NCBI GenBank assembly: GCA_964415025.1
Contig: CAYPXF010000001.1
Span: 78,629 to 142,628 of the forward strand
Direction of reading: 5' to 3'
Origin: an uncultured Gammaproteobacteria bacterium
GTDB taxonomy: Bacteria; Patescibacteriota; Patescibacteriia; UBA10025; JAHIVO01
Length of the DNA stretch: 64,000 bases
Both the position numbers and the translations under genes were made by a program. Shown piece after piece: positions 528-44,666 of this stretch (position 1 is the first letter of the stretch; each line of letters opens with the position of its first letter). The notes beneath the pieces were generated by a model, which saw nothing but the letters and a program-made list of their open reading frames with translations, was not told the DNA's origin and ran no database searches.

Positions 528-3365
528 CTATTTCTTGCTCTCTACTCCGCCTTCCTTGGCCAACGGTATCTGCACGTGAAATGTCGAACCCTTGCCCTCG
601 CCGGCAGACTCGACCCAGATCTTACCGCCATGCGCCTCGGTTAGGCGCCGGGCCACGTACAGCCCCAGACCTGAACCGTCGGGATTAACCTGGGCAATGC
701 CGTAGCCGCGTACGAATTTGGTAAATAGTTTCTTCGCCTCTTCCGGCGGGATGCCGCGGCCGGTGTCGTGCACAGAAAAATGCATCATGCCACCGTCAAC
801 CTCTGTCTTCAGGGTGATACTGCCCTCGTCAGTGTATTTGATGGCATTGTCAGTCAGGTTCATGATCACGTCGCCGAGCTTGTCCGCATCAGCCATAACC
901 GGCGGCAATGGTTTATCCGGCTTGTCATACACGAGCTTCAGATCCTTATCTTCGGCCGCCTTACCTACTACGTGCGCTTCTTTTTCTACCAGCTCTTCGA
1001 ACTGGACCTGACGCTTGTTCAGCTCCAGCTTGCCGGATTCAATCTTGGACACGTTCAAGAACAAGTTGATAAGCCGGATCATACGCTGTGATTCCTCCAG
1101 CAAACCCTGCAGGACTTTATTCTGCTCATCCGGCACTTTGCCAAAGTCTCCCTGCAGGATCATGGACAAGTATCCCATAATACCGGTCATCGGCGTACGC
1201 AGTTGGTGCGAGGCAATGGACACAAACTCTGACTTAGCCTGATCCAGCTGCTGCAGATGTTTGTTCGCCTCGGCCAGGTCACGATTCGAATCCTCCAGCT
1301 GGCGATACAGCTCGATGTTCCGGTACACGATCCCAGTCTGGTTGCACAAGGCCTTCATCATGGACAGGTCGGTTTCCTTGAGCTCGCCTGGATCGCGCTC
1401 TAGCAAGAAATCAATAACACCGACAATGCCTTCTTCCGAATAAATCGGCACGGCGATAATCGTCTTAATACCCAGATGCTCCTGGATTTTCTTGGCTACC
1501 TCTGCCGGAATCGGCGGCGAGATAAAATCGGCAAAGTCTGTGCCGATCTGCACTTTGCCGAGCTTAATCGCTTTGATAGAGCGTGTTTTGTCATTACGGT
1601 AATCACCGTAATATGAATCAAAGGGCTTGGGCAGCAGTTTTAATACTTCCTGTGTTTTTTTGGTCTGGGTCACCGCGTCGGGAAACAACTTATGCTTGTT
1701 CTTGCCTAAAAATAACAAAATCCCTCCTAAATACCCGAGCTCGGTAGTAATGCTGTCAGTGATAGCCTGGGTTACCTTATGAAAGTCCAGGGTACGGGTG
1801 ATGAGGTTGGTGACCTTTTGCAGGGCCGAGAGGAATCTGTTTTGCTCCTGCAGCTGGAGGTTGGTATTGCGCAGGCCTTCGGTGGCTACGGCGACTTCCT
1901 TCTTCAGTCGTTCAGTAAACTGCCTGGCTTCCTCATACAGCCGGGATTTTTCCAGTGCTGAAGCCAGCTGCGGCCCGATCAGAGTCAGCAGATCAATGTC
2001 TTCAGAGCCGAACGGGTCGCCGGACAGCTTAGGTCCCATGACCAGCACGGCATTTAAATTGTTTCCTACCATTACTGGTGCAACCACGGCCGCGTCCAGC
2101 GCATCCAAGGCTTTTTTTGATTGTTCCAGTTTTTTACGCTCTGCTTCGTCCTGGGTATCTTCAATTTTCCGTTCCAATGCTTCGAGTACGATAATTTCCT
2201 TGCGCTCGTTCAGGAAATGTACCAGCGGATTGTCATGCGACAGCCGGTCATCTAACTCCCCATTATTATCCTCTTCCTTGCCTTTTATTTTTTTACCGTT
2301 CGCGTCCAGCCGGCCCTTGCGTTTGTAGTACGCTCCCCCGGCCCGGCCGGATAAATACACGCTGACATTTTTGATTTTGAGCCTGTTCTCCAGTTTGCGC
2401 GACAGCGAGTACAGCAGGACGTCCATATCGATTTCCCTGTTAATGATCCGGCTTAGCTCCTGCAACAGCTTCTGATAATCAATCCGCGCTTTGAAAAATA
2501 ATTGGTCAGTGGCCTTGGCAATACCGCGTTTGAGGGGGTCGAGGATAAGAACGATGAAGATGGATACGGCGATTGATATTACTGTTTTGGTTGTTAGACT
2601 TACAGCGAGTATTTCTGGAAGGAGAAGTGTTAATCCAACGACTGTTACTGAAATAAGAAGGACCACGAGTGAATAGGTGATCGTTCTTAATATTATCAAG
2701 CGAATGTCTAACAACCTATGTTTAACAATTGCATAAGCAGTGAAAGCGATAAAGATAATAGTTGATGGTGGACCAATAATGCTTAATCTAGAAATTCCAA
2801 AAAGAGGCAATACACCACTTACAAATATAGCTAAAAAGGCTGTTATAGTTATCCCGGTTAAGATATATCTTAGCTGCTGTTTCAGAATCCCTGAAGCTCC
2901 TCTAAACTTCTTAAAAAGATTTCTTATTGTTATACCAAGATATAAGACAAAGTATAAATTAAATATAAAATAAACAGGCCCAGGAGTTATCTCGCCCCCC
3001 CAATCATGATGAACAGTGTCAGATATGTTTAATGAGGTAAATGCTAAAGGAAAAAGTATGATTGTGGGCAGAAAAATAAGAAATATTTTTTTTCTACTTA
3101 ATTTCTTTTTTTTACCACTAAAATAATATGAAAATAATACCATAAATGGCAGCATCAGAATTGGACCAATAATTGTCATTCTTGCCCAGAATAAATCAGT
3201 TATAACCATGTCCGCCATTAATACACTAAATATCCAAAAACAAACACTAAATGTCATCAAAGAAAAAATACGATTTACTGTTCTACGAGAATTTCTAACA
3301 AGAACTAATAACGCAATTGTTAAAGTTGCCAAAAAAACTGGTATGTATGTGAAGTAATTAATCAT
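528..3365 (-). CDS. membrane sensor histidine kinase (N-terminal 7TM sensor module, GAF domains, HisKA, HATPase_c)
   Basis: multi-TM N-terminus; HisKA H-box SEFVSIASHQLRTPMTGIMGY; HATPase_c N/G boxes NLTDNAIKYT, DTGRGIP, GSGLGLYV; 945 aa. Confidence 0.85.
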   Translation of the reverse strand: MINYFTYIPVFLATLTIALLVLVRNSRRTVNRIFSLMTFSVCFWIFSVLMADMVITDLFWARMTIIGPILMLPFMVLFSYYFSGKKKKLSRKKIFLIFLPTIILFPLAFTSLNISDTVHHDWGGEITPGPVYFIFNLYFVLYLGITIRNLFKKFRGASGILKQQLRYILTGITITAFLAIFVSGVLPLFGISRLSIIGPPSTIIFIAFTAYAIVKHRLLDIRLIILRTITYSLVVLLISVTVVGLTLLLPEILAVSLTTKTVISIAVSIFIVLILDPLKRGIAKATDQLFFKARIDYQKLLQELSRIINREIDMDVLLYSLSRKLENRLKIKNVSVYLSGRAGGAYYKRKGRLDANGKKIKGKEEDNNGELDDRLSHDNPLVHFLNERKEIIVLEALERKIEDTQDEAERKKLEQSKKALDALDAAVVAPVMVGNNLNAVLVMGPKLSGDPFGSEDIDLLTLIGPQLASALEKSRLYEEARQFTERLKKEVAVATEGLRNTNLQLQEQNRFLSALQKVTNLITRTLDFHKVTQAITDSITTELGYLGGILLFLGKNKHKLFPDAVTQTKKTQEVLKLLPKPFDSYYGDYRNDKTRSIKAIKLGKVQIGTDFADFISPPIPAEVAKKIQEHLGIKTIIAVPIYSEEGIVGVIDFLLERDPGELKETDLSMMKALCNQTGIVYRNIELYRQLEDSNRDLAEANKHLQQLDQAKSEFVSIASHQLRTPMTGIMGYLSMILQGDFGKVPDEQNKVLQGLLEESQRMIRLINLFLNVSKIESGKLELNKRQVQFEELVEKEAHVVGKAAEDKDLKLVYDKPDKPLPPVMADADKLGDVIMNLTDNAIKYTDEGSITLKTEVDGGMMHFSVHDTGRGIPPEEAKKLFTKFVRGYGIAQVNPDGSGLGLYVARRLTEAHGGKIWVESAGEGKGSTFHVQIPLAKEGGVESKK

Positions 3366-4701
3366 TGGAGGTATAAGCTAAATAAACATCCGAATCGATC
3401 TTCGTGGCATCAAATTTAGCAAAGATTGATAATAAACGAGCAAAATATCTACCTTTTTTCTTAGTAAGACTTAGTCTAATAACGTTGGGTAGCAGTGGCG
3501 CTCTTTCAATATTTAAGTCTTTTCTGAACTTATATCCATTAATCTTTTCACTCCAATCTGCCAATATTCTTGCATTTCCTTTTGTTCCCTGGTTTTTTAG
3601 CAAATCCCTAGTTCCAGCAACAAATAGTATCAAATATGCAAATGCAGGCATTTTTTTTGAGGTTAGTATCAATTTAATATAGGCATCTGCGATTCTCCAT
3701 CCCTTAGAAACCCAATTTGCTTTATCAGAATTTTGTTTTCCAATTAACAAGTATAAACCTTTAATTTTATTATCCTCGTCAATTAATAAATACTTATCAT
3801 AACTTGGATTTGATAGATAACTAATAAATTCATCTCTAGTATACTCAAGCTTTTGAGGAGAACTCTTATTAATACCTTTTAGTCTATTATGATATAAATC
3901 ATAAATAATATTTTTGTAATCTTCCGGGATTATATTGGCTTTAGAAATAAAAAACCTATTTTTAAAAAAAATACTATTAAATTTATAAATTATTTGACTT
4001 TGATGATTTTTTTCTGAATCAATAAATTGGCCAAATATTTGAAGTAAGTACTCCGCTCTGGTTTTTTTATTTAATGTTTCTTGCCAATGTATATGCGCAA
4101 AAGTCTCCTCATCTAATAAATGCATCTTACCGTTATTATTACCATTTCTATTTAATATTTCATCAGCAAAATATAAATTAGATAATTTTAAAGATATTTC
4201 TGAGTAGTTCATAACTAAATAAACCTTCTGATTCATATACTTACTGACCTCCACATACAAAGATTCTAGTAATTTTATGTAATTAAGTATTTTATTTTTA
4301 AATAACTCATCTGTATATTTAGATAATATAAACCCACAATTATCCCCTATAAGGAAAAGGGGGGTCCTGTTTCCCATGATCACATTTTTGTTTTTTTTAT
4401 TTTTATTATCATAAAAGTATTCAAATGAATAATGTGATTCCGGATACAGAGCTAGATCGTCAGTCACGAACCAATAACCTAAGAAATTATTGTTTCGTAA
4501 TACACTAATTTTAAGTATTTTCTCATTTTCACAAATACTATCAAATAGTTCTCTAGATAAACTGGGCTTACTTTGCACGGAAGATTTATAGTTTTCTTTG
4601 TAACCACAATAAAAGCCCCACCACTTAAATCTATCTTCATAATCAAGTAATTTAGTTTTTATTTTAATTTCTACACCATTATTCATTTTTTCTCCAAACA
4701 C
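3358..4701 (-). CDS. hypothetical protein (447 aa), AT-rich, Lys/Asn-rich; possibly a FemAB/GNAT-like acyltransferase fold (speculative)
   Basis: long ORF overlapping the downstream methyltransferase by 23 nt (operon-like); composition clearly more AT-rich than neighbours. Confidence 0.4.
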   Translation of the reverse strand: MFGEKMNNGVEIKIKTKLLDYEDRFKWWGFYCGYKENYKSSVQSKPSLSRELFDSICENEKILKISVLRNNNFLGYWFVTDDLALYPESHYSFEYFYDNKNKKNKNVIMGNRTPLFLIGDNCGFILSKYTDELFKNKILNYIKLLESLYVEVSKYMNQKVYLVMNYSEISLKLSNLYFADEILNRNGNNNGKMHLLDEETFAHIHWQETLNKKTRAEYLLQIFGQFIDSEKNHQSQIIYKFNSIFFKNRFFISKANIIPEDYKNIIYDLYHNRLKGINKSSPQKLEYTRDEFISYLSNPSYDKYLLIDEDNKIKGLYLLIGKQNSDKANWVSKGWRIADAYIKLILTSKKMPAFAYLILFVAGTRDLLKNQGTKGNARILADWSEKINGYKFRKDLNIERAPLLPNVIRLSLTKKKGRYFARLLSIFAKFDATKIDSDVYLAYTSND

Positions 4702-5365
4702 TTACCCAAATAAAATAAAGTAGTAAAAATGATTTATCTAAATACATCCTGTTTTTGGTCATCATTTCTTTTAACTCACTCCGAGTGTAATATTTTGCAT
4801 ATGGTTCATCAAAGTACTTTGATTTGAGTAATTTTGTCCACTTTTTTCTAAGAAAACCATCTTGGACTGGATCTAGTAAAATAAATATTCCTTTTTCATT
4901 CAAATATCCACGAAATTTATTTAGTACCTTTGATTGATTATCATAATGGTGAAATGAATTCGAACAAATAACGACATCAAATTTTTTATTTACGTGATAT
5001 TCATGAACATCAGTATTTATAAATTTTATTTTAATATTTTTTGTATTAATAAATTTTAACCTAGCAATATTTAGCATCTCATCCGAAACATCCACCCCCG
5101 TAAAATCTAAAAATGGATATTCTGAGGATAATTTCTTTAATAATGTACCAGTCCCACACCCAACATCAAGAACTGAATTGATTACGTTATTTTTATAGTG
5201 ACTACTAACTAAATTTACAACTTTGCCAGCACTGTATTTAAAATATAAATCCCAAAAACCTTTTTTTTCGTAGCTTCTTGCTAGTGAATTAAACTGCTTT
5301 TGAGATTGTTGAGCATTATTAACCACCCAAATAAAAAAAATTCTTATGTTTATATCATACCACAT
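4679..5365 (-). CDS. class I SAM-dependent methyltransferase (small-molecule type)
   Basis: motif I VLDVGCGTGTLLKKL, post-I acidic residue, FDVVICSNSFHHY motif. Confidence 0.75.
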   Translation of the reverse strand: MWYDINIRIFFIWVVNNAQQSQKQFNSLARSYEKKGFWDLYFKYSAGKVVNLVSSHYKNNVINSVLDVGCGTGTLLKKLSSEYPFLDFTGVDVSDEMLNIARLKFINTKNIKIKFINTDVHEYHVNKKFDVVICSNSFHHYDNQSKVLNKFRGYLNEKGIFILLDPVQDGFLRKKWTKLLKSKYFDEPYAKYYTRSELKEMMTKNRMYLDKSFLLLYFIWVSVWRKNE

Positions 5366-5531
5366 TTTCCCGTTTTTTGCAACTTACCGAAAATAACAAA
5401 ACAGCCCTCATTGTACTGAAAATTTGGGCATTAGCAGTGTTATTGTGGGGAAGCATGGGGTGTGTTTTTATTTTTTCGTTGGTTTTATTTTAGCATAAAA
5501 GTACAAATTATTTAAATTAGCAGCTGAATTT

Positions 5532-6164
5532 TTATTCTGTATCAAATGCAAACGATTGTATTATGCCCTGATATATATTTGTGTATTCAGTTGTCTTTTC
5601 TTGATTGGCAATAATGCCGGATATAATATATCCAGTTCCATCACGAATAATATAGGTATTGATGTTGTACCCATATCCCTCATTGGTTACCTGATATGCT
5701 GGCAGGTCACTAACTGTCATCTCCTCTTCATCTACGATATAGTCCTGGAATCCTCCTTTTCGTGAAAAATCTGCCAAAGAATTACCGGGATAATTATCTA
5801 CGTAGACTTCCAATTTCATGCCCTGAATAAGATCCCCGTCAGTCTCTTGGGCCTGCGCTTCAGGATCAAATAACATCACCAGATCGGCTTTGGAAGTTTT
5901 CTTATCAAGCTGCCAATCTGAAGGAACAATAAAAGAATAATTATATATTGTGTTAGTAATATTGATTCCAGAGTCTACCTGCTGTGTCATAATCACTTCT
6001 TCAGCAGTACGCCTGCTATTTAGATTATTATTCTGATTTATAATATTAACCGGGGTATTATTATTTTGTATTGATGGTTGCTCCCCGTTTTGTCTATTTA
6101 AAAACAGTATTGCAGATACTACTACTAATATAAATATAATAGTTATAAATATTTTTTTACTCAT
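5532..6164 (-). CDS. N-terminally anchored secreted/membrane protein, hypothetical
   Basis: N-terminal TM/signal MSKKIFITIIFILVVVSAILF followed by a hydrophilic domain. Confidence 0.45.
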   Translation of the reverse strand: MSKKIFITIIFILVVVSAILFLNRQNGEQPSIQNNNTPVNIINQNNNLNSRRTAEEVIMTQQVDSGINITNTIYNYSFIVPSDWQLDKKTSKADLVMLFDPEAQAQETDGDLIQGMKLEVYVDNYPGNSLADFSRKGGFQDYIVDEEEMTVSDLPAYQVTNEGYGYNINTYIIRDGTGYIISGIIANQEKTTEYTNIYQGIIQSFAFDTE

Positions 6165-6270
6165 ATAAATGATTACAATACGCTATAGAGAAATGGATGG
6201 AGAATACCAGACATGGTATCAATTATTTTTTATGGTGCATAAAATGATAGCAGTAAAATCAATTAATATC

Positions 6271-6525
6271 TTAATCTGCTAGCAGCACAAGTGCATGACC
6301 AGGCCAGAACAATATTTGAAAAATTGAACGTACAATGATTACAAATACTGCGCTAACCCTAGAAAAATCTCCCTCATTTTGTAATTCTTTTGTGGACGCA
6401 GCATGCTGATCAGGAAACAACAAAATAAAAACAACACCTACAACGGTATATATTGCTAAAACAATAAAAAAAATAATGATGCTTTGACGATGTTTCATAA
6501 AAGTAAATGTATGCTGACCCCTCAT
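6271..6525 (-). CDS. small membrane protein, hypothetical
   Basis: 84-aa ORF with two hydrophobic segments; weak. Confidence 0.25.
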   Translation of the reverse strand: MRGQHTFTFMKHRQSIIIFFIVLAIYTVVGVVFILLFPDQHAASTKELQNEGDFSRVSAVFVIIVRSIFQILFWPGHALVLLAD

Positions 6526-6549
6526 AAAAATGAAAGGTCAGCATCACAG

Positions 6550-7146
6550 TCAATACGTTTTTACCCGTAAATAGTACCTTATGTACCCAGCACCAAATGC
6601 AGAGTAAAGACATGATCCGACAACGCCGGTCACACGCTGATAACCTCCTTCCATCCAGGACCAGCTAGTGATATGGCCACCGTAGCACGCACGAATCGCC
6701 CAGTAGAGCGCCCAGTTGGGAGTAGTAAAGTAATATCCTTGCTGTGAACCGGCCCACCATTTATATTCGAGTCGGAGGTCATAGTCATGACCAGAATAAT
6801 AGTAGTAAGCGGCATACGCGATAATGGTTTGGCTAGTAGCGACTTTCGCTTGATGTTGATTCTGATGAGCAATAAATGCCGCTACCATCTCCTGTTCTTC
6901 TGCCGCGCTTATTTCGGGTACCACTCCAGAATCCCGCAAGGCGTAATAGTTCTGCAGCATCTCTTCAAGAGTTTCCGTGCCACTATATCTGACCGCGGCG
7001 GTCTGCTGACGTGCTTCTGACGGTATATTACCTTGCTCACCGACTGTTGATTGTATTGGAGATTCTTTTTCTGAACAACCAATAACAACCAACAATAGTA
7101 TGGTAGCAATCACTACCATGTGCTTAGAATGCTTCAAAAATATCAT
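6550..7146 (-). CDS. lipoprotein, hypothetical (Tyr/Gly/Trp-rich C-terminus)
   Basis: signal peptide plus lipobox LLLVVIGC-S. Confidence 0.5.
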   Translation of the reverse strand: MIFLKHSKHMVVIATILLLVVIGCSEKESPIQSTVGEQGNIPSEARQQTAAVRYSGTETLEEMLQNYYALRDSGVVPEISAAEEQEMVAAFIAHQNQHQAKVATSQTIIAYAAYYYYSGHDYDLRLEYKWWAGSQQGYYFTTPNWALYWAIRACYGGHITSWSWMEGGYQRVTGVVGSCLYSAFGAGYIRYYLRVKTY

Positions 7147-7645
7147 TTCACTATCCTCACTTTCTTCGATTTCAGTGTTTGATTGTAAATAGCAGTTTTT
7201 CTTTCAGAAAGACCCACATGTGTTTTCTGAAAGCGCCCCCTTTTGGTGCCCCCTTAGTAAAGGTTAGGTGTCATAGGCATCGACCTCCTGTAGGCCTTAG
7301 GCAAATTCCGTTATGCAGAATTAGCCGACGGGCCTTACGTTTGAAAATGAACTGTTTTAGTTGGATGTTTTTTGATATTTAATGTTTTTCCACATGATTT
7401 GCCGACGGCTATTCTATGCGACGGCGCAAGATAAAAATACTGATTAAACTCTAATTAAATTAACTTTTTGATTTGTTATATTTTTTTTCTTTGTATACAG
7501 AGTCGTCTTTTTTTTCATGAGCAATCATCATTTCTACCTTTATTTTAGCATTTTTTAAACCATAAGAAAAGAAAGTATGTACTAATAAATACACACATTT
7601 GACATTATGTTGTAGTGAGGTGTAGGTAGTTTGCCGCAGCTCGGT

Positions 7646-7710
7646 GCCCGCTTCGCGGGAGATCCTTCACCCACACACCATATGATGGTGTGGGGTTCTG
7701 GATGACAAAT
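7646..7710 (+). repeat. two-hairpin GC-rich intergenic motif, copy A
   Basis: about 80% identical to 16119-16183; hairpin cccgcttcgcggg plus hairpin cccacacacca/tggtgtggg with a compensatory change in copy B. Confidence 0.55.
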
Positions 7711-7805
7711 AAGTTGTGGCCAATACTTTATGACAAATGTGTCGTGTTATGGAGGGACTCAACTAACGGTAGTCATTCAGGGTCCGTAATACACTTATCA
7801 TGCAT

Positions 7806-8336
7806 TTATTCCCTGGTGAAATCAATAATCGGGTATATACGAAAACATGAATTGAGCCATTCCTGCCCCCTCTTCTTCTCCAACCAAAAATTAAAACTAG
7901 AATAATCGTAATCTTGCATTTCGTTCACATAATCATGCTTGATGGGATTGTGATGGATGTAATTAAAGTGTTTCCAAAAGTCTGCTTCGTCCCTGATGCA
8001 GTGATCCCAGTAATTATGAAATAACTTAGTTCCTTGGGTGCGGTTCATTTTATTAATTCTATATGAGATTCCTCCGTGTATTTTTTGCATCAGTTGAGGC
8101 AACTTTTCCGCGTTTCTTACTTTGAGCAGTAAATGATAGTGATCTTTTAATATAACCCATGCGATTAAATCGTAGCTCGCTCTCCGGATTTCAGCCTTTA
8201 GGCTGTGGAGTAGTATCTTTTTCATTTCATCCGATTCAAACACGGCACGTTTTTTATGTGTACGAGAGGTTATAAAATAGTACATATTATCTAAAAACAG
8301 ATGTGGTGGGTGGTGAAACTTGTTCATATATGTCAC
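7806..8336 (-). CDS. IS200/IS605-family (Y1 HUH, RAYT-like) transposase
   Basis: HUH motif HYHLLL; size (about 170 aa) and sequence typical of Y1 transposases; the annotated GTG start may really be the internal ATG (MNKFHH). Confidence 0.7.
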   Translation of the reverse strand: MTYMNKFHHPPHLFLDNMYYFITSRTHKKRAVFESDEMKKILLHSLKAEIRRASYDLIAWVILKDHYHLLLKVRNAEKLPQLMQKIHGGISYRINKMNRTQGTKLFHNYWDHCIRDEADFWKHFNYIHHNPIKHDYVNEMQDYDYSSFNFWLEKKRGQEWLNSCFRIYPIIDFTRE

Positions 8337-8616
8337 GCTAAAGTCTGGAATCCTTGGAGCGGTGGTCGGGGACTACAACCTTTGGGCTACTTAACCGGGT
8401 GCTGTCTCACCCTAAAGGGTGAAATCCTGGAGACGACCTGGACTCCTCAACCTCCACACACTCGGTTTCGGAGGGCAAGCGAAAGCTTGGAACGGTTTAC
8501 GGTTTTGCAGGCTCTCGCCTGGACTCCGAACAGGTGCGGTTGTGTGAAAGTTTTGCTATATATCACGCTAAAGCGTGGAATCCTTGAGCGGCTACGGATT
8601 ACAGCCTTTAGGCTGG
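8326..8616 (+). repeat. two direct copies of a roughly 60-bp repeat (tatatRtcacgctaaagNNtggaatccttgagcgg...tacaRcctttRggct) separated by about 170 bp
   Basis: direct comparison of 8326-8390 and 8556-8616; contains the palindrome cagcctttaggctg, which also occurs inside the transposase gene at about 8190. Confidence 0.5.
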
Positions 8617-8628
8617 CAACTTTACTGC

Positions 8629-10053
8629 CTAAGTTCTCCCAATCCTCTCCACCGCCTGTTTATAGAGCAACGCATTCGCGATCGCTCCGGTCATCTGCGG
8701 CTGGAGGCGCTGGAGATAGAGTAGGTTGTCAGCCGTGTAGGCCTCCTTGTTTTCTTTCTTGCCGAAGAAAAACGCCCCAACTAACTCCCCTGGTTCGCCG
8801 ACCGGCACTACCAGCCAGACGCCCATGGCTTTCAGTTCCCGCTCGATACTCTCCAGCATTTGCTGTTCACCCTCGTCCTTCTCCTCCTTGAGGTAGGGAA
8901 TCTCTTCGGTAACGATAATACTTTCCTGCTCGCGCAGATAGCGAAATAGCGCCGTATCGGATCCCGCCTGCACCCGCCGCTCATCAGGATAATAATTTTC
9001 CAGGATATTCTTCTGTCGATTTAGCCAGATGAATTGGATATCAGAGGCACCGAGAAACTCGCTAAATTCAGCTCGTATCCGCTTAATCAGCTGATCAAAC
9101 TGCAGAGAGGACGACATAATACTGCGCAGTTTGCTTGATTCAGCCTTTGTATCCTTTTGCTGTGAATAAAATACACGGTCGATCGCTTTTACTAATAATC
9201 GCCGCAGCGGTTCGATTGTCAGGGCAATGATTAAAACAATTAGTATGGTAGTCGCTTGCTCGGACCAACTGTAATTGATTTCTAATAGCCTTTTCGAGAA
9301 AAGTAATAAGTAAATGTATATAGCTGATAGCAGTATTATCGACAAAGAATATACAATTCCTTTTCTTATCACTAATCTAATATCAAGCAACCTATAACGT
9401 AAAATAGAATATGCAAAAGCTAGTGAAATAAATATTGTTCCTAATGAACCCCAGTAACTTTTAATATTTTCGATAAAATAGGGCAAAATTAAATCAGCTA
9501 GGGATCCAATTAATGATGCTAAAGCAAAACCAAATATAACATATTTTAATTTTACTTTTTCTAGTGGTTTACAATTTTTGTATTTTTTATATATAACAAA
9601 AAAAGTGATAATTAAATAAATAATTATATAGAGTGAAAATACATAGTGATAATCACCATACACCGGGGTGCCGAGGCCATCTTCATTAATAAATTGATCC
9701 TTAAAAAATGCATTACCCAAAGACGTCCACCCGATAATGATTGGGGGTATTGTTAATAAAATTATATGAATGAGTTTTACTCTACTTTTGTAAGGAAAAA
9801 ATATTGAAAATAATAGAAATGAGGGGACGATTAATCCTCCCATTAAAAATGAAACTCTCCCAAAAACAGCGGTTACTTCAGCGCTTCCAGTAAAATAGGC
9901 AAAATAATTACCTGCTAGCCAACCATTTAGAATAATAATCAGTATAAAGTAGGTCCACTTAATTCCGCTTCTCTTGCTTCTCACGAGTACCAAAAACGCA
10001 ACTGCAAAGTTTATTAGAATTACTACTAGATATATAATTTTTATTAAAGACAT
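8629..10053 (-). CDS. 7TM sensor module plus GAF domain protein (histidine-kinase-like N-terminus without kinase domains)
   Basis: N-terminal 7TM region paralogous to that of the 528-3365 kinase; C-terminal GAF-like region; ORF ends exactly at the repeat block of the IS element. Confidence 0.6.
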   Translation of the reverse strand: MSLIKIIYLVVILINFAVAFLVLVRSKRSGIKWTYFILIIILNGWLAGNYFAYFTGSAEVTAVFGRVSFLMGGLIVPSFLLFSIFFPYKSRVKLIHIILLTIPPIIIGWTSLGNAFFKDQFINEDGLGTPVYGDYHYVFSLYIIIYLIITFFVIYKKYKNCKPLEKVKLKYVIFGFALASLIGSLADLILPYFIENIKSYWGSLGTIFISLAFAYSILRYRLLDIRLVIRKGIVYSLSIILLSAIYIYLLLFSKRLLEINYSWSEQATTILIVLIIALTIEPLRRLLVKAIDRVFYSQQKDTKAESSKLRSIMSSSLQFDQLIKRIRAEFSEFLGASDIQFIWLNRQKNILENYYPDERRVQAGSDTALFRYLREQESIIVTEEIPYLKEEKDEGEQQMLESIERELKAMGVWLVVPVGEPGELVGAFFFGKKENKEAYTADNLLYLQRLQPQMTGAIANALLYKQAVERIGRT

Positions 10054-10103
10054 ATAGTTTCCCTCGAATTACAATTTATTTCTAAATCACTCTTTTTTGG
10101 TTG

Positions 10104-11903
10104 TTAGCTTTTTGACTTTCTAGTTTTTCCGTACTTCGTAACTGCCCATAAATACATTAATGAATTTTTGATATATGTATTCATATGCATAACAATTTTT
10201 TTGATTGCCATGATATCCTGCACATTATAGGAGCTCTGTTTATTGATCGCCGCTATTACTCCTAATAATTCATTATTTGAAATAACGGGTATCAACAGGG
10301 AAATACTATGGTCAGCCATGGCTTTTTTAATTGCTTGAAAATAATCTTTCGGTATCCCATTTTGATAATATTGTGCATAGCTGGGAATCTCGCTAAATAC
10401 TAATATATTGCCGGTACGCACTAAATATTCTGTCAAATAACTATTATTATTCAGAATTAATGTATCAGCTTCATGAGATGGCATCTGAAAAGAGCTATAT
10501 ACAATTGCTCTTCGAGCTTCATGTTTGAGATACAGCGAGATATGTTCAGCTTTAAGCAAGTGCTGTACCTGGGAAGTAAAAGCATCTAAATCATCAATAA
10601 ATTTATTATAAACGTTACTATGTACTCCCGACGCAGATAACCGCTTGCTGTAGCTATTATCTGTGCTCTGTTCCTGATTCAGAATTATTTCAGCACTAAT
10701 TTTTTTCTGCTTATTTATTTGATGAATATTATTTCGCAGGGGTCTACTGTTTTGTTTTTTTACAATACTATACTGGTGTTTAATTTTTGAAATCATCCCC
10801 TGTCTCAAAGCTTTATTTTGTGCTGGTGTAAAGGTAAATTTTTCATCCAGTTGTTCTGCTGCTTGCGTAAGTAACTTGTTATCAAAATATTTTATTTCAT
10901 CAGCAATCTCATTATTATCTGTCCGTACCAGTGCGACTTCATACCCAGCGCCGACCATTGCCTTATAACTTTCTAGATATACGTTAGCTCCAAAAATATA
11001 TAATTGCGGCTGGGGCGAATCACCCGCCGTAAATGTGAAAGACTTATCAAGAGTGTCATTATCTAAGAATTTTATCAGCTCTTGGAAACGTAACTGCAGT
11101 TCCTTGGCGGAATACCCCATCTGAATTAATAAATTTGACCGAGGCGTCAACATGCATCGCACCGTTATGTTATTTTTAACCAGTTTGCTGATCAGTTTTT
11201 GCTCCCGCTTGCAATAACAAGTTTGCCTGCTATTTGTTGCGACATCTTTATCCGAATGTGAAAAACAGGATAAGCCGGTATGTAATCGAAGTATATTATT
11301 ATGCTGTGACGGTCGTAGTAGCATATCAGCCCCTTTCTGCAACCATGCATATCTTTCTTCTTTCGAATGTATATAAAGCGGATAACGGCCGGTGGGATTC
11401 TTCTCTAGAGCCGTAGTAATAATTGATTTAATACTCTTATCTTTTTCCGCAAAAACTATTTTCCCGTCAAATTCGTCAATTGTTTCTATGAGGGCAGCGG
11501 CAGTTTGTCTGACGATATTACCGCAATAATTAAATCTAGATATTGAATCAAAATTCTGATATTCAGATACTAAATTATTACAAATATAGCTCCCCTTTGT
11601 TGATAAGCGTTTGTCTATTTTCCTGCGAAAAGCAATAATAATTTCCATAAGTTTTGGGGATACGGACTCGTTATCTTCAGCCGGTCCAAATATATGCGCT
11701 AAGATCATTTCGGCTGCCGCGATCGCGCCGCAACAGCGACTGCCATCCAGCCCACCACGCCGCAAACTATGCAGACCAGGGGACATAGAATCAAATGCCT
11801 TGGCTATGGCAATGCTGCATCCATAGTGTTCGCCATCATGATTTCCAAAATAGTAATCCTGTGATTTTTGAATGTATTGTTTGGAAATATTATCGATTGC
11901 CAT
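10104..11903 (-). CDS. C_GCAxxG_C_C-family domain protein with C-terminal GAF-like domain
   Basis: N-terminal HYGCSIAIAKAF...RCCGAIAAAEMIL matches the C-GCAxxG-C-C motif; C-terminal LLIPVISNNELLGVIAAINK is GAF-like. Confidence 0.55.
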   Translation of the reverse strand: MAIDNISKQYIQKSQDYYFGNHDGEHYGCSIAIAKAFDSMSPGLHSLRRGGLDGSRCCGAIAAAEMILAHIFGPAEDNESVSPKLMEIIIAFRRKIDKRLSTKGSYICNNLVSEYQNFDSISRFNYCGNIVRQTAAALIETIDEFDGKIVFAEKDKSIKSIITTALEKNPTGRYPLYIHSKEERYAWLQKGADMLLRPSQHNNILRLHTGLSCFSHSDKDVATNSRQTCYCKREQKLISKLVKNNITVRCMLTPRSNLLIQMGYSAKELQLRFQELIKFLDNDTLDKSFTFTAGDSPQPQLYIFGANVYLESYKAMVGAGYEVALVRTDNNEIADEIKYFDNKLLTQAAEQLDEKFTFTPAQNKALRQGMISKIKHQYSIVKKQNSRPLRNNIHQINKQKKISAEIILNQEQSTDNSYSKRLSASGVHSNVYNKFIDDLDAFTSQVQHLLKAEHISLYLKHEARRAIVYSSFQMPSHEADTLILNNNSYLTEYLVRTGNILVFSEIPSYAQYYQNGIPKDYFQAIKKAMADHSISLLIPVISNNELLGVIAAINKQSSYNVQDIMAIKKIVMHMNTYIKNSLMYLWAVTKYGKTRKSKS

Positions 11904-11905
11904 AT

Positions 11906-12499
11906 TTACAATTTATTCCTAAAATTTTCGTCCTTATCCATTAATTCCTCCAGCAGCTGGCGGAGGAAATCAGCTTTTGTTTTCTTAATCTTCTTCGCTT
12001 TCCAGAGGAGGTAACGCTCCATGCGGGGGGTGATGCGCAGGGTGAATTTTATAGTCGGCTTTTGCTTCAGCCCTTTTCCCTCGCTGACCTCATGCAGGAA
12101 ATCCATGACCGTCTGCTCCAGGTCCTGCTTGGTATATTTGGCCAGGCGCATGTATTCGGGCGTGTTTTTCTTGGTCAGGTAGCCGTGGGCGATTTTTTCC
12201 GGGGTGCCTTTTTTATACAGGTAGAGCAACGGCTTTTTCTGGGAAATGGCGTAGGCCAGGAGATAGCCGATTTCCTGGTCCGGCTTGGATGCCTCCACGA
12301 TGATACAGTCCATCTTGTCCAGCAGTATCTCCCCTGACTCCTGCATGCGCTCGAGTTCCTCTTTCTTAAAATCAGTATTATTCTCGTCTGATGAGGCCAC
12401 TACAAATACACCGGCCTGCCGTAGTGTTTCGACGACAGTCTTATAATTCTGGTCGAGTTCGGTGGTAGATATTAATGGTGAGAAAAAGTAAACGCGCAT
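11906..12499 (-). CDS. nucleoside 2-deoxyribosyltransferase-like domain fused to C-terminal ribbon-helix-helix (CopG-like) domain
   Basis: N-terminus RVYFFSPL (compare KIYLAGP), EASKPDQEIGYLLAYAISQKKPL (catalytic Glu-type motif); C-terminus KFTLRITPRMERYLLWKAKKIKKTKADFLRQLLEEL is RHH-like. Confidence 0.45.
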   Translation of the reverse strand: MRVYFFSPLISTTELDQNYKTVVETLRQAGVFVVASSDENNTDFKKEELERMQESGEILLDKMDCIIVEASKPDQEIGYLLAYAISQKKPLLYLYKKGTPEKIAHGYLTKKNTPEYMRLAKYTKQDLEQTVMDFLHEVSEGKGLKQKPTIKFTLRITPRMERYLLWKAKKIKKTKADFLRQLLEELMDKDENFRNKL

Positions 12500-12507
12500 T
12501 GTATTCG

Positions 12508-12951
12508 TTATAGTTTAACGGTTTGGGTTTGGCGGCTCGTATCGTCTAACGTTTTCGTTTCACGTCTATTTATAAATTTATCCCAGGCCACAGCTAGTTT
12601 AAATAACTGACGGGCTGACTTATCATACATATCGATAAGTTGGGTACATAAAGTAACCTCAATATGATAAATATCTTTCACTTGCTCAATACTGACAATA
12701 CATTCATTGCTTTCTGCCATAGCATCATCAATATATTTCTGAAATCCTGCTCGTTGATGCTTTTTAGCATATCCTTCAGCGACCAATCGCGGTGCTGCTT
12801 TAGACGACCTGCTGAGCTGATCTTTCAAATCATATCTCTCACTCGTAGGCAATTTTGGGATAATTCTCGTCATCACTAAAATACATGCTTTATATAAATT
12901 TTGATAAACGTCTAAATCTCGAAAGCTTCTGATTTTATTCTTACTATCCAT
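12508..12951 (-). CDS. four-helix-bundle protein (23S rRNA intervening-sequence protein family, TIGR02436-like)
   Basis: FRDLDVYQNLYKA...ERYDLKDQLSRSSKAAPRLVAEGYAK family signature. Confidence 0.7.
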   Translation of the reverse strand: MDSKNKIRSFRDLDVYQNLYKACILVMTRIIPKLPTSERYDLKDQLSRSSKAAPRLVAEGYAKKHQRAGFQKYIDDAMAESNECIVSIEQVKDIYHIEVTLCTQLIDMYDKSARQLFKLAVAWDKFINRRETKTLDDTSRQTQTVKL

Positions 12952-14773: not shown

Positions 14774-15266
14774 ATTGACTAATAACTAACAACTAACTAC
14801 CAAACAATTATCCAAAAACCAACACCTAAAAACCTATGCTCCATATTTCCCTTATATTATGCGCCGTCGCGGATTAGAGCGCCGTCGCACTTTTACCCTA
14901 CCCTACTGCTCATATTTTCGTCAATATTGCATTATCCACTACTATGTGGAAAACTAACAATAAATTTTAAAAAATTCCTTTATTTAAAGGGCTAATGCAG
15001 TAATATATAAAGCCGCTATTCTATATATACAAAGGAATTGCACATTACGAAAAAACCTCTTATCATAGGATAAAACCAATTGCTGGCTACATCGTGTGTC
15101 AAACAATTACCCCCCTAGTTTCCTGATATGATTCTGGCCGGCATTTTTTATTGCATTATTATACCGATATGATTAGGTGTGCTATAGTATAGGTGGTTCT
15201 TCATTCTGGAGTTTTTCATATAGATTCATGGTTTTGTACAAAACCATACCGTACTTTCATTCATAC

Positions 15267-16118: not shown

Positions 16119-16183
16119 CGCCCGCTGCGCGGGAGATTCTTCACCCACGCACCTTCAAAAGGTGCGCGGTTCAGGATGCCAAC
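16119..16183 (+). repeat. two-hairpin GC-rich intergenic motif, copy B
   Basis: about 80% identical to 7646-7710 with a compensatory a>g / t>c change in stem 2. Confidence 0.55.
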
Positions 16184-17510: not shown

Positions 17511-17651
17511 AAATAAATACGTTTCATAAATATCGTTGTCGTTTACGTTGTCGCGGCGCGTACCGTTAATCGGTTACGTTGTACGGCCGATGAAATGAAA
17601 CCGCTAGACTAAACCGATACGAGCCGCGAAACCTAAATCCTCAAACGAAAA

Positions 17652-19409
17652 CTATTCTTCAGGCGGTATGCCGTAATAATTCAGCATAAATTTCGTTAAA
17701 TTACCGAAGAGCGGCGCGGCAGAAGACTCGGCCCACTGCACATCACGCGGTCGATTAATCCGTACGCACATAACAAAAGCCGGATCATCTGCCGGGGCAA
17801 ACCCGCAAAACGATCCAATGGTATGGTTGGGATCATAGCCCGGGCCGTCCTCGCGCGGGACCTGGGCCGTACCCGTCTTGCCGGCCACAAAATACCCGTC
17901 CACGCCGGCCCGGCTGCCGTGGCCGCTCTGCACCACATTGACAAGCATGGCACCCAATGTGGTAGCGGTTCTCTGGGTAATCGGTTGGCCGAGCACGGCT
18001 GGTTCTGTTTTGACACGGAATCCGTCCGGCTTAACAATTTCATCAACAATATACGGCCGCATCAGCTGGCCGCCGTTGGCAATCGCGCCAAAGGCGTTGG
18101 TCATTTGCAGGAGGGTCACTGAAATACCCTGGCCAAACGAACCGGTCGCCATATACAGCTCCTTATGCGAGGCTAACGACGACACGTCGCCATTTGCTTC
18201 TGAATTCAGCTCCAGATCATAGCTCTCTCCGAAGTGGAACGCCCGAACATATTCATCGAATTTTTCCGGACCGATCTGCCGGGCGGCGAAAATAACGCCG
18301 GTGTTGAGCGACTGTTCCAGTACCTGGGTCATGGTATTAATGCCGTGGGCTTTGCCATCGAAGTTTTTGATGGTATATTTTCCGATTTCCTCACTGCCGG
18401 TGTCTTCGTACGTTGTATTCGGACTGACCGCGCCTTCATTCAGGGCCGCGGCCATGGTAATGGGTTTGAAAACCGAGCCTGGCTCATAAATATAGTAGGT
18501 TGCCGGATTAATGTACACATTAATATCTTCTACCTCGTTATATTCATTGGGATTAAAATCAGGCGATCCGCATAGTGATTTCACTGCGCCCGTCTGTGGA
18601 TCCATGATGATAACGCTGCCGCTGTCCGCGCCGTGCTGGGCCACCCACTCGTTTAGCTGTTTACACGCCTCATACTGTATCGTATGGTCGACGGTTAAAA
18701 TAAGATTGTCGCCGTCTTGTGCCTCTTCCAGCAGTTTAGTTCCAAACGTGATCCACCGGCCCTGGGCATCTTTTTCTGCCTGTAAATAACCTTCTTCACC
18801 GGCTAATTCATCATTCCAATACTCTTCGAGTCCGTACTGCCCGACCCGAACATCGTTCTGCATCCCGACAAAACCGAGCAGATGAGAGGCGATATTATTT
18901 TCCGGATAATACCGGTATAGCTGTTCTTGGAATTTTATACCGGTAAATTCCAGCTGCTTGATTTCGTTCACTACTGTTTCATCCACCTGGCGTTTAAGAG
19001 GCTCGTACAAGTCATTTTCCTTGGTCAGCCGCGGTACTAGTTCAGCTTCCTCCAGCTCCAGAAGCGGGGCCAGTGCTTTGGCTACCATTTCCGGATTTTC
19101 TACGCGTTTGGGCTCGGCATAAACTAGATAATATGATTTATTCGTGGCCAGAGGGTAGAGTGTGCCTGGTGTGGCATGGTCTCGGACCAGTATTTCACCC
19201 CGTTTGGGCAGCAGCTTTTCAGACAATCCATGCTGGTCTGCGGCGATTGCTTCATAAAACGAATGCTGGAAAATTTGGATATCGCCCAGCCGGATGGCGA
19301 TCAGCGCGGCAAATATAAAAATAACCGCACGTAATACATCAATGCGGTCGAGCCGATGCTTCGGCTGTTTGTCCTGCTGTACGCGTGATCGGACGCGCCG
19401 ACTCGTCAT
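17652..19409 (-). CDS. ftsI: penicillin-binding protein / peptidoglycan D,D-transpeptidase FtsI
   Basis: N-terminal TM; SVFK (SxxK), SLN (SxN), KTGT motifs; dcw context. Confidence 0.85.
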   Translation of the reverse strand: MTSRRVRSRVQQDKQPKHRLDRIDVLRAVIFIFAALIAIRLGDIQIFQHSFYEAIAADQHGLSEKLLPKRGEILVRDHATPGTLYPLATNKSYYLVYAEPKRVENPEMVAKALAPLLELEEAELVPRLTKENDLYEPLKRQVDETVVNEIKQLEFTGIKFQEQLYRYYPENNIASHLLGFVGMQNDVRVGQYGLEEYWNDELAGEEGYLQAEKDAQGRWITFGTKLLEEAQDGDNLILTVDHTIQYEACKQLNEWVAQHGADSGSVIIMDPQTGAVKSLCGSPDFNPNEYNEVEDINVYINPATYYIYEPGSVFKPITMAAALNEGAVSPNTTYEDTGSEEIGKYTIKNFDGKAHGINTMTQVLEQSLNTGVIFAARQIGPEKFDEYVRAFHFGESYDLELNSEANGDVSSLASHKELYMATGSFGQGISVTLLQMTNAFGAIANGGQLMRPYIVDEIVKPDGFRVKTEPAVLGQPITQRTATTLGAMLVNVVQSGHGSRAGVDGYFVAGKTGTAQVPREDGPGYDPNHTIGSFCGFAPADDPAFVMCVRINRPRDVQWAESSAAPLFGNLTKFMLNYYGIPPEE

Positions 19410-19468
19410 AATATCTCAAGTGTTATCTACTTATTTTGAAAGTATACCAAAATATTACTGTATGTAAA

Positions 19469-19828
19469 CTACCGTACGGCCATAGCGGTATCGGCCGGGA
19501 CAATGTATTCCACGTCATTTGCTGCCACCATGTCCATATCTGCGGTGGCCTGTTCGATTACTGACAATGACTTAAGCTGGGCCGCCTGGAGTTCGAGCTG
19601 TTTATTTGCTTTTTCTAATGCGGTAATTTTATTTTCATATCCCTTGATATCAAATCCGCCGGTCGCCGTCTGGTTCACGAAAAATAAATAAGAAAAGCCG
19701 GCGAACACAATCAGGCATAATAAGACAATACTGAGGCTGATGCGGCTGACAGTAATGCGTTCTTTGATTTTTGTGTTGAGCTTGCTTGATTTGGCAGTAG
19801 TATACTGCTGGGACATGAATTTGGTCAT
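19469..19828 (-). CDS. ftsL: cell division protein FtsL-like (TM plus coiled coil)
   Basis: single TM, coiled-coil KITALEKANKQLELQAAQLKS; located between rsmH and ftsI. Confidence 0.5.
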   Translation of the reverse strand: MTKFMSQQYTTAKSSKLNTKIKERITVSRISLSIVLLCLIVFAGFSYLFFVNQTATGGFDIKGYENKITALEKANKQLELQAAQLKSLSVIEQATADMDMVAANDVEYIVPADTAMAVR

Positions 19829-19853
19829 GATTGGTTTTAGGTTTTATGTTTGG

Positions 19854-20813
19854 TTATATTTTTTCCGCTACGCGCAGTTTGGCGCTGCGGCTGCGTGGAT
19901 TAGTTTTTATTTCCTGCTCACCGGGCGTGATCGGTTTTTTCGTGATGACCCGTACAGTAGCCTGATGCCGGCAGCGGCATACTGGTATGTCCGGCGGGCA
20001 GACGCACTCCTGCGCCTGTTCTCGGAAATACCGCTTCACGATCCTGTCCTCCAGCGAGTGGAAACTGATGACTGCGATACGTCTACCGGGTGAAAGAACA
20101 TCGATCATGTCTGGCAAAGACTGCTGCAGTATGTTCAGTTCATCATTGACGGCGATGCGCAGTGCCTGAAATGTTTTTGTCGCCGGGTGAATACCGCCGA
20201 TCCACGGAACTTCTTTCGTGCTGCCGAGTACTTCCCGGTAGGCCAGGAGTATGGCCTGGACGAGCCTTTTTGTTTTTGTTATAGGTGCCTGTCGGCGGGC
20301 CACAATTATCTGATTTGTTATGGCGCGCGCCAGACGAGACTTTTCTTGACCATACTCCTGGATTATTTGGGTTAGCTTTATGTCAGGCCAGGTATTGACA
20401 ATATCTGCTGCGGTCAGCTCCTGGTGGACATCAAACCGCATATCAAGCGGTGCATCAGCTATCTGGAAAGAAAATCCTCGATCCGTATCTTCGAGCTCAA
20501 ATGATGATAAACCAAGGTCAAGTAAAATACCGCTAATTTTATTGCTAGAAAACTGTTCATTGTATATTTTTTTTATAGTATGGAAACTGCCGTGGGCAAG
20601 GGTAGCTCGATCCTGGAATTGGGACAGTCGACGCTGACTTTTCTGAAGCGCGACCTGGTCCCGGTCAATACCCAGCAGTTTTCCGTCCGGTGCCGTGTGC
20701 TTGAGTATAGTCTCGGCGTGTCCCCCGCCGCCGAGCGTACCGTCTATAAAATGCTGGCCTGGTTGGGGCTGTAATAATTCGATAACTTCGTTTAAAAGTA
20801 CCGGTGCATGCAT
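19854..20813 (-). CDS. rsmH: 16S rRNA (cytosine1402-N4)-methyltransferase RsmH/MraW
   Basis: HAPVLLNEVIELL...FIDGTLGGGGHAE N-terminus, DLGLSS motif. Confidence 0.9.
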   Translation of the reverse strand: MHAPVLLNEVIELLQPQPGQHFIDGTLGGGGHAETILKHTAPDGKLLGIDRDQVALQKSQRRLSQFQDRATLAHGSFHTIKKIYNEQFSSNKISGILLDLGLSSFELEDTDRGFSFQIADAPLDMRFDVHQELTAADIVNTWPDIKLTQIIQEYGQEKSRLARAITNQIIVARRQAPITKTKRLVQAILLAYREVLGSTKEVPWIGGIHPATKTFQALRIAVNDELNILQQSLPDMIDVLSPGRRIAVISFHSLEDRIVKRYFREQAQECVCPPDIPVCRCRHQATVRVITKKPITPGEQEIKTNPRSRSAKLRVAEKI

Positions 20814-31625: not shown

Positions 31626-31828
31626 AGGTTTAAAAAAATCTGCGGATTAATACCACAGACTTGTATGTGTCTACTCTAGCTTGCTACCTTACTAACTCGA
31701 CAGCTCGCTAGTTTTTACCTCGGCAGGATTTATGAAGCCTTTGCTACACCTGCTGTCTGTGGTGATAAGATTGTATTATCCCCAGTATAGCAGACAAAAA
31801 AACACTGTCAAGCCGTGCCCGCTATGTA

Positions 31829-44655: not shown

Positions 44656-44666
44656 AGTTTGTTTGT

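Follow-up and report, generated by a model that had tools for sequence, protein, structure and literature searches.

A probable REPtron with short, atypically footed hairpins in a patescibacterial genome

The subject of this analysis is a stretch of 64,000 nucleotides (hereafter the window) from a genome deposited as an uncultured Gammaproteobacteria bacterium and placed by GTDB in the Patescibacteriota (assembly GCA_964415025.1, contig CAYPXF010000001.1, positions 78,629 to 142,628 of the forward strand). A transposase gene on its minus strand (7806-8336), together with the hairpins around it, very probably constitutes a REPtron, in which a vertically inherited, single-copy gene for a REP-associated tyrosine transposase (known as RAYT or TnpA-REP and falling in class 2 of the Y1 HUH family; REP stands for repetitive extragenic palindrome) is set in a cluster of cognate hairpins that resembles a bacterial interspersed mosaic element (BIME). 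We establish the family and fold of the protein and the integrity of its HUH motif and tyrosine; for the hairpin units, we establish that they exist, that they covary and that they accompany the gene across the family. The system is nevertheless a variant one, with a hairpin foot that is not GTAG, a very low REP copy number and a REP copy that lies in frame within the gene without being an insertion. RAYT/REP systems are a textbook example of a domesticated bacterial transposase and, to our knowledge, have been characterised almost wholly in Proteobacteria, with GTAG-footed REPs. The kind of system is thus already known; what is unusual here is the type of hairpin and the REP copy retained within the gene.

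Family and fold of the protein

The gene encodes a protein of 176 amino acids (aa), with either GTG 8336 or, more likely, ATG 8327 as its start codon. It contains the motif DHYHLLL (DHYH at residues 65-68, with H66-Y67-H68 as the HUH motif) and, further on, NYIHHNPIKH with the catalytic Tyr126. A preliminary description, made from the sequence alone, had recognised a 176-aa Y1 transposase from HYHLLL, and the Pfam search it proposed agrees, Y1_Tnp matching the open reading frame (ORF) with 35.8 bits against a cutoff of 23. Residues 126-131 (YIHHNP) carry the Y-x3-NP signature, which defines class 2 of the TnpA-Y1 proteins of Quentin et al. 2018 (PMC6006769). The same description offered a choice between a REP/RAYT and an IS200-type element, and only the former stood: the NCBIfam model NF047646 (REP-associated tyrosine transposase, a curated equivalog) is passed with 117.4 bits against a cutoff of 80, while the IS200/IS605 model NF033573 is failed with 24.4 bits against 55.

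Comparisons with solved structures agree with this assignment. A protein profile built from 26 homologues retrieved Escherichia coli TnpA-REP (4ER8) as the best match in the PDB (E=2.7e-15), the IS608 and ISDra2 transposases following at 1e-3 to 0.06. The AlphaFold model of the RAYT (pLDDT 89.2) again has 4ER8 as its top PDB match (E=2.4e-10, TM-scores 0.69/0.73), at a sequence identity of ~18%, and the IS608 and ISDra2 transposases, with which it has the HUH/Y1 core fold in common, rank behind it (ranks 2-29). Residues invariant across the 26 homologues include H66, Y67, H68, N125, Y126 and P131. The family consensus comprises NHYH or, more broadly, (N/D)HYH, IW[YFW] and YIH[HQ]NP, along with an N-terminal HxPPH (HRPPH). 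This conserved N-terminus is lost in the public gene call P0001 (159 aa), which begins the RAYT at M18 (gene start 8285-8336); the 1.4-kb Logan contig obtained through P0001 is identical to the window.

At E<=1e-30, an exhaustive profile search found 139 representative clusters (50% identity), a number that rises to 5,436 at E<=1e-10; the RAYT of the window thus belongs to a modest subfamily within the large RAYT class. Its named members come from Patescibacteria, Falkowbacteria, Buchananbacteria, WOR-3, Zixibacteria, Edwardsbacteria and similar groups, and the MurF protein of the window is itself 60-68% identical to proteins named Patescibacteria or Kerfeldbacteria, which marks the window as part of a Patescibacteria genome.

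Hairpin units around the gene

The cognate unit is 20 nt long and consists of a GC-rich 5-bp stem with closing C-G pairs and a TAAA-type tetraloop, followed by N3-TCC; on the opposite strand this foot reads as GGA-N3 on the 5' side of the stem. About nine hairpin+TCC units lie in 7647-8615, seven of them upstream of the RAYT gene, one downstream and one intragenic. The strict pattern C-NNN-C TAAA G-NNN-G RAATCC has five matches, all within 8186-8615, where ~0.9 would be expected by chance in 64 kb. A looser scan (perfect 5-bp stem, N2-4, TCC) gives eight units in 7647-8615 against a shuffle expectation of ~0.4 per kb, and newly picks up 8470-8489, 8508-8527 and 7647-7665. The stems at the locus vary yet remain complementary (CAGCC/GGCTG, CACCC/GGGTG, CACGC/GCGTG).

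Moving upstream from the gene, an imperfect unit, CACGC-TAAA-GTCTG + GAATCC (8334-8353, plus strand, pattern scan), overlaps the start-codon region, and one of the related loci described below, L002, has a homologous unit abutting its start codon. It is followed by a degenerate unit read from the sequence, TAGCC-CAAA-GGTTG + TAGTCC (8362-8381, minus strand), and by CACCC-TAAA-GGGTG + AAATCC (8408-8427, plus strand), which fits the pattern scan. The two variants CAAGC-TTTC-GCTTG + CCCTCC (8470-8489, minus strand) and CAGGC-TCTC-GCCTG + GACTCC (8508-8527, plus strand) come from the looser scan. Furthest out, CACGC-TAAA-GCGTG + GAATCC (8564-8583, plus strand) and CAGCC-TAAA-GGCTG + TAATCC (8596-8615, minus strand), both from the pattern scan, form the inner and outer halves of a doublet, B; the outer unit lies 14 nt past the stop codon of the neighbouring 7TM-GAF gene. 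The feet of these two units are able to pair, and doublet B folds as DNA into two hairpins with paired feet (-10.9 kcal/mol, z = -2.2). Read in the sense of the gene, the array in the upstream 290 bp alternates 'hairpin then TCC' with 'GGA then hairpin'.

Two direct repeats of ~60 bp had been noted upstream of the gene, each said to contain a palindrome that is also found inside the transposase gene. Both repeats are present, copy A at 8327-8390 and copy B at 8557-8620, with a mean column identity of 84% and two 4-nt indels in their alignment. The exact palindrome CAGCCTTTAGGCTG does recur within the RAYT gene (8192-8205); of the two repeats, it is found only in copy B (8602-8615), copy A holding no more than the degenerate form CAACCTTTGGGCTA. 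Each repeat is an inverted REP doublet with its feet facing: doublet B in copy B, which is REPIN-like (REPIN, REP doublet forming a hairpin), and a decayed doublet in copy A, of which the degenerate unit at 8362-8381 is one half. Most units of the locus are arranged in such facing inverted pairs. This is the BIME/REPIN architecture, and the inverted pairing that the preliminary description suggested looking for is therefore there.

We also considered other structured elements. The Rfam scan of the whole window at gathering thresholds returned only an L10 leader (31622-31780), and a permissive scan of 7400-8800 gave nothing credible, so the GC-rich block upstream of the gene corresponds to no known structured RNA; the fold of its central part does not surpass that of shuffled sequence (z = -1.4). 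Promoter and terminator consensus scans of 7300-8800 gave no sites. A CRISPR-like array and a riboswitch in the 5'-untranslated region were dropped as unsupported readings of the locus, and an omega-RNA or TnpB-type guide RNA was dropped because no tnpB is present.

The base composition of the region is uneven. GC content is low, at 27-40%, across positions 3000-12000, compared with ~47% in the rest of the window; this stretch holds the RAYT gene, two GAF-type sensor genes and several ORFs without a family match. The RAYT gene has ~37% GC and its REP array >50%, and this GC-rich array produces a spurious 196-aa ORF on the plus strand (8301-8891).

Association and covariation across homologous loci

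For comparison, 76 genome loci encoding homologues were retrieved (designated by L numbers), and the 41 with at least 38% identity, the window included, were used to count flanking hairpins; they are mostly from Patescibacteria, with WOR-3, Zixibacteria and others also represented. A GC-containing hairpin+TCC lies within 350 bp of the gene in 31 of the 41 loci, and on both sides of it in 27. TCC follows 34% of nearby hairpins, against 6-9% elsewhere (7% of distant hairpins). Near the gene, hairpin+TCC units occur at 4.32 per kb; at a distance from it, non-ORF DNA has 0.66 per kb and ORFs have 0.28 per kb, so that the vicinity of the gene is enriched ~6.5-fold over other intergenic DNA. With the Y1 transposase matched by its hidden Markov models and hairpins recurring beside other copies of it, both observations by which the preliminary description proposed to judge its assignment come out in favour of the REP/RAYT half of it.

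The flanking stems are species-specific. Examples are CAGCC-TGAA-GGCTG-AAGTCC (L003), CCGAC-TAAA-GTCGG-GACTCC (L014), CCTCAAC-AA-GTTGAGG-CATCC (L006 and L007) and AATCC-TTAC-GGATT-AACTCC (L008-L010 and L015). Among 35 units from 11 loci, each of the three inner stem pairs occurs as four to five pair types, with constant closing C-G pairs, loop and TCC foot; in the foot, no unit departs from T18 or C20, and >90% have C19. Many of these units were gathered with a filter of at least 4 of 5 complementary positions, so their 97% stem pairing arises partly by construction and the diversity of pair types is the informative part.

Dispersal was assessed with motif-specific scans, repeated 13-mer blocks having proved too noisy a measure in AT-rich DNA. 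In the motif census called for by the preliminary description, carried out here on the window, the type of unit found in the ~60-bp repeats is confined to the locus, and the two-hairpin motif downstream of the gene recurs at 16119-16183.

A REP copy within the reading frame

The intragenic unit, CAGCC-TAAA-GGCTG + AAATCC (8186-8205, minus strand), was located by the pattern scan and the protein alignment and placed on the AlphaFold model. It spans codons H44-R51, whose residues include S-L-K-A-E-I, and sits in the predicted helix alpha-A, upstream of HuH; the protein alignment has no indel there. It shares 22 of 24 nt with an upstream copy, and the match runs 4 nt past the foot.

Codons homologous to H44-R51 form a REP unit of the local type, foot included, in two clades. 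One comprises the window, L002, L003, L004 and L079, with the motif S-L-K-A-E-[I/V/F]; the other comprises L013, L014, L080, L081 and L082, with C-L-K-[A/T]-G-L, and in L013 the intragenic sequence is identical to a downstream REP over 24 of 24 nt. Exact sharing of 12-mers between gene and flank was informative only for the window, L013 and L014 and was replaced by a rank test of ungapped 21-nt matches. In the loci of the two clades the intragenic segment ranks 1-8 among ~170 gene segments for similarity to the flanks; in all the other loci it is unremarkable. The stem codons covary between lineages (AGC...GCT, TGC...GCA, TGT...ACA), and the base that follows the I/V/F/L codon is always C, which completes TCC. 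By lineage, the intragenic foot reads GAAATCC, GAAGTCC, GAATTCC or GGACTCC. Where members of the SLKAE clade have the same amino acid, their codons agree in 84% of cases within the hairpin and in 47% outside it. A crude neighbour-joining tree does not place the two clades as sisters. Altogether, the alignments indicate that the intragenic REP copy is non-insertional and tracks the flanking REPs in two clades.

A further step can be taken only tentatively. The family, with its ~140 clusters (50% identity), might form a RAYT subfamily of its own in uncultured phyla, with an uncatalogued class of REP (short stem, TAAA loop, TCC/GGA foot). In at least two clades the gene would keep a copy of its own REP, co-evolving with the flanking REPs, and so be itself a substrate or operator of its product. 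If so, the intragenic copy might be a self-recognition or autoregulatory site, or a master copy that seeds the flanking REPs.

Other members of the family are longer. P0059, P0065 (alignment columns 84-131), P0202, P0212, P0218, P0253, P0259-P0261 and P0270 have insertions of 40-160 aa after the HUH strand, and members of 220-340 aa show split profile matches. Some of these insertions include internally repeated peptides (ALPQFATP...), as in-frame insertions of REP arrays would give. In-frame REP insertions of the kind described for subclasses 2.4 and 2.8 thus seem to occur in this family too.

Synteny and inheritance

The gene next to the hairpin array, which we place outside the system, encodes a 474-aa HisKA_7TM + GAF-like sensor (8629-10053, minus strand; HisKA_7TM 43 bits, GAF_2 weak), in agreement with the 7TM-GAF gene noted earlier. 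Its orthologues anchor the comparison with relatives, one of which has the RAYT gene and one of which lacks it; a comparison with strains lacking the insertion had been proposed in the preliminary description. In L079, the orthologous 7TM-GAF gene (a remnant, 9686-9889) is followed at its 3' end, with nothing between, by a RAYT 60% identical to that of the window, and in both genomes the RAYT lies downstream of the same block (7TM, asparaginase, 23S-IVP and a ~200-aa protein). In L124, whose MurF is 70% identical, ~20 kb are collinear with the window; the 7TM-GAF orthologue (18731-20158) is followed by a spacer of 238 bp and the next gene, with no RAYT. The genome shared as an ancestor by the window and L079 therefore already had the RAYT at this site, and in L124 the gene was either lost or never acquired.

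L013, L014, L080, L081 and L082 form a second mutually syntenic set, with other REP stems. L013 and L016, paralogues that share a contig, have diverged from each other and differ in their REPs, and the RAYT gene of the window is single-copy within its 64 kb. The synteny argues against a recent insertion of the gene. Such housekeeping-like behaviour, with few and divergent copies and vertical inheritance, has been described for RAYTs (PMC5581495, PMC8266576).

Several observations concern the relatives themselves. In L079 the 7TM-GAF gene upstream of the RAYT is reduced to a C-terminal remnant of 67 aa and preceded by an NYN-domain gene, which points to a rearrangement next to the REPtron of that genome. 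The closest RAYT, at 61% identity, is in an assembly that accounts for L002, L012 and L123 (GCA_964549245.1, labelled 'uncultured Gammaproteobacteria bacterium'); its MurF is 77% identical and it carries two divergent RAYT paralogues. It is evidently a Patescibacteria relative, and its taxonomic label looks wrong. L001 and L078, which are independent Logan assemblies from sister samples, both stop exactly at window position 7269, ~370 bp beyond the downstream two-hairpin element; the break may reflect strain variation or a repeat boundary.

A downstream two-hairpin element and other repeats

Downstream of the RAYT gene lies a composite two-hairpin element (7633-7709, core 7647-7709, plus strand), identified by repeat match, which folds as DNA at -20 kcal/mol (z = -3.6). 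Its first hairpin, CCCGC-TTC-GCGGG + AGATCC (7647-7665, plus strand), fits the hairpin+TCC rule and resembles a REP unit; the second (7670-7695) is closed by GATCC/GGATG. The recurrence of this GC-rich motif, noted earlier, is confirmed by a second copy (16119-16183, plus strand) just 3' of the minus-strand murF and in the same sense orientation. The two copies share one 20-mer (0 chance matches expected) and are 77% identical over the aligned stretch, with a compensatory A-T to G-C change in the second stem; the foot of hairpin 1 is AGATCC or AGATTC. Every copy closely follows the 3' end of a gene and has the sense orientation; in the window these genes are the RAYT gene and murF.

L124 has two fuller palindromic versions (15139-15230 and 20211-20300), which follow the pattern TGTCATTCTGAG...GAAGAATCTCC-hairpin-GGGACTCTTCGC...CTCAGAGTGACA. 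The site orthologous to the RAYT position is occupied by one of these in the absence of a RAYT, so the element is a separate composite palindromic repeat family of the lineage. It may resemble a widespread repeat that gives spurious '...AQNDK'-type ORFs in metagenomes. A metagenome-wide scan for GGGAGATYCTTCACCCAC returned 40 matches, all attributable to chance, none of which extends past the pattern and none of which has a RAYT nearby; the collection evidently does not contain the source genome.

Two unrelated repeats were also seen in the window. The ~500-bp intergenic region 44656-45170, upstream of a 1042-aa ORF, contains two 53-nt direct repeats (44748-44800 and 44869-44921), each made up of the hairpin CCCCTCC-TTGGAAA-GGAGGGG followed by GTTAC-TTTTA-GTAAC; the region has no Rfam gathering match. 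A 38-nt inverted repeat, 82% complementary, has its arms 5 kb apart (12507-12544 and 17615-17652), one at the 3' end of a 23S_rRNA_IVP-family gene (12508-12951) and the other just upstream of murF.

Discussion

The alternative readings of the locus differ in what the hairpins are taken to be. They could be the left and right subterminal ends of an autonomous IS200/IS605-family insertion sequence whose TnpA gene inserted beside the 7TM-GAF gene, and the Y1_Tnp domain of the protein, the presence of hairpins on both sides of the gene and the corresponding intergenic site without the gene in L124 all speak for this. The protein, however, falls far short of the NF033573 cutoff while passing the RAYT model, and its tyrosine lies in YIHHNP instead of Y-x3-Q (PMC6006769, Table 1). 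The gene has no second copy in 64 kb and no tnpB accompanies it. Instead of one left-end and one right-end hairpin on one strand, there are about nine hairpins in alternating orientation with facing feet. The 60%-identical orthologue at the same site in L079 means that the gene has been there through a long divergence (~40% at the protein level), and its position is conserved while the hairpin stems differ between species. The IS200/IS605 reading is largely refuted and we consider it very improbable; the earlier interpretation of the hairpins as subterminal ends, which the single-copy gene and its shared site likewise contradict, goes with it. It is scarcely credible that the upstream repeats instead stem from a segmental duplication that copied some of the 5' part of the gene and then decayed, with no REP system involved. 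Such an origin would suit the 22/24-nt intragenic match, which reaches 4 nt beyond the foot, and the 24/24-nt match between the ORF and the downstream flank in L013; but only the hairpin unit is similar, no further segment of the ORF recurring in the flanks. The units, moreover, occur in both orientations and on both sides of the gene with compensatory stem changes, and most family members have flanking units without an intragenic copy.

Some observations do weigh against a REPtron. The canonical 5' GT[AG]G foot is absent, its place being taken by N3-TCC/GGA-N3; the equivalent of E. coli W94 is Phe in the RAYT of the window (KLFHNYWD), though Trp in most homologues; and the ~63 kb of the window outside 8186-8615 contain no TAAA-loop unit, a REP population spread over the whole genome being the hallmark of such systems. 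The cleavage site, strand preference and activity of the subfamily are, furthermore, extrapolated from characterised relatives. In the nearest homologues the hairpin units are likewise confined to ~200 bp of the gene, and the sole distal doublet seen is an intergenic one in L080, 6.4 kb from the gene; the REP population therefore appears to be very small. This confinement is also what would be expected if the hairpins were fixed cis-acting sites (operators, or structures in mRNA or single-stranded DNA) bound by a domesticated regulator that no longer spreads REPs in this lineage. The unit over the start codon and the one kept within the ORF, with its elevated codon identity in the SLKAE clade, fit that explanation as well. 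Against it, the HUH motif and the tyrosine do not vary within the family, which speaks for cleavage chemistry having been retained, and the number, order and orientation of the units vary between orthologous loci, as gain and loss would predict. The distal doublet of L080 and the 2.4-fold higher frequency of hairpin+TCC in distant non-ORF DNA than in ORFs also tell against fixed sites. On balance we regard a fixed-site regulator as unlikely, and return to the REPtron in what follows.

The best-studied relative is the REPtron of E. coli (TnpA-REP/RAYT yafM, 4ER8; Bertels group 2, Quentin subclass 2.2), which shares the Y1 HUH fold with a single Tyr in Y-x3-NP and a single-copy gene bracketed by hairpins in both orientations and inverted pairs. 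Its guide-contacting residues align with invariant residues of the window RAYT (R104/R115 and E100/D111; PMC6006769), while the HuH motif is DHLH in E. coli and (N/D)HYH in the family described here. In E. coli the REPs are long palindromes that contain bulges, have a 5' GTAG foot and are dispersed in ~600 copies (PMC8266576); the units of the window, in contrast, have perfect stems of 5-6 bp, a TAAA loop, a TCC/GGA foot and no dispersed copies in 64 kb. The Pseudomonas REPIN-RAYT system (Bertels group 3, subclass 2.5) likewise has short perfect palindromes, inverted doublets and a single-copy vertical RAYT. Its REPINs number hundreds to thousands per genome, with a GTAG-type foot (PMC3116915, PMC5581495), whereas the REP population here is local and minimal, in a small genome of the candidate phyla radiation. 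The IS200/IS605 transposases (IS608, ISDra2) have in common with the RAYT the recognition of hairpins on single-stranded DNA; the Y-x3-Q motif, multi-copy behaviour, left-end/right-end pair and tnpB of those elements are absent from the locus.

Among the subclasses of Quentin et al. (PMC6006769), compared here by description, the small subclass 2.8 offers the closest set of motifs, judged from the motifs themselves, HxPPH and a length of ~180-200 aa. That subclass is characterised by NHYH, W[YH], YIH[YH]NP, a proline-containing N-terminus and long canonical 5' GT[AG]G REPs, with relatives in 'other unrelated phyla' and REP insertions in some members (PMC6006769); the locus lacks such long canonical REPs. 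Subclass 2.6, with YIH[QN]NP, ~179 aa and 'atypical secondary structures' without GT[AG]G (PMC6006769), is a partial likeness by motifs and by its non-GT[AG]G structures, and subclass 3 also lacks GT[AG]G (PMC6006769). The intragenic REPs of subclass 2.4 and of some 2.8 members are insertions, generally between HuH and Y (PMC6006769), unlike the copy described here, which lies upstream of HuH and leaves the length of the protein unchanged. A literature search on RAYTs and Patescibacteria found no relevant paper.

By analogy with E. coli TnpA-REP (PMC8266576), the enzyme would bind a folded hairpin on single-stranded DNA and read its unpaired foot. It would then cleave nearby by means of the HUH-bound metal and Tyr126, with formation of a 5'-phosphotyrosine, before the strands are rejoined (PMC8266576). 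In the alignment, the position corresponding to E. coli Q95 differs, which is consistent with a different foot. REP doublets would be duplicated, deleted or moved as a result, while the gene itself would stay put. Since REP copies lie within the ORF and over the start codon, the RAYT gene is a likely binding substrate of its own product; autoregulation or a cis-preferential action through these copies is a speculative extension.

In practical terms, the gene is mis-started in a public annotation, and hairpin arrays of this kind yield spurious ORFs. More broadly, the same RAYT/REP architecture would extend to the streamlined genomes of Patescibacteria, with another foot and a minimal REP population, and the locus would offer a simple setting in which to study the role of a RAYT with hardly any REPs to mobilise. 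Most of the interest lies in the atypical class of REP and in the co-evolving intragenic copy, which, by tracking the flanking REPs through compensatory codon changes, may provide a testable handle on substrate recognition and possibly on self-regulation in this family.

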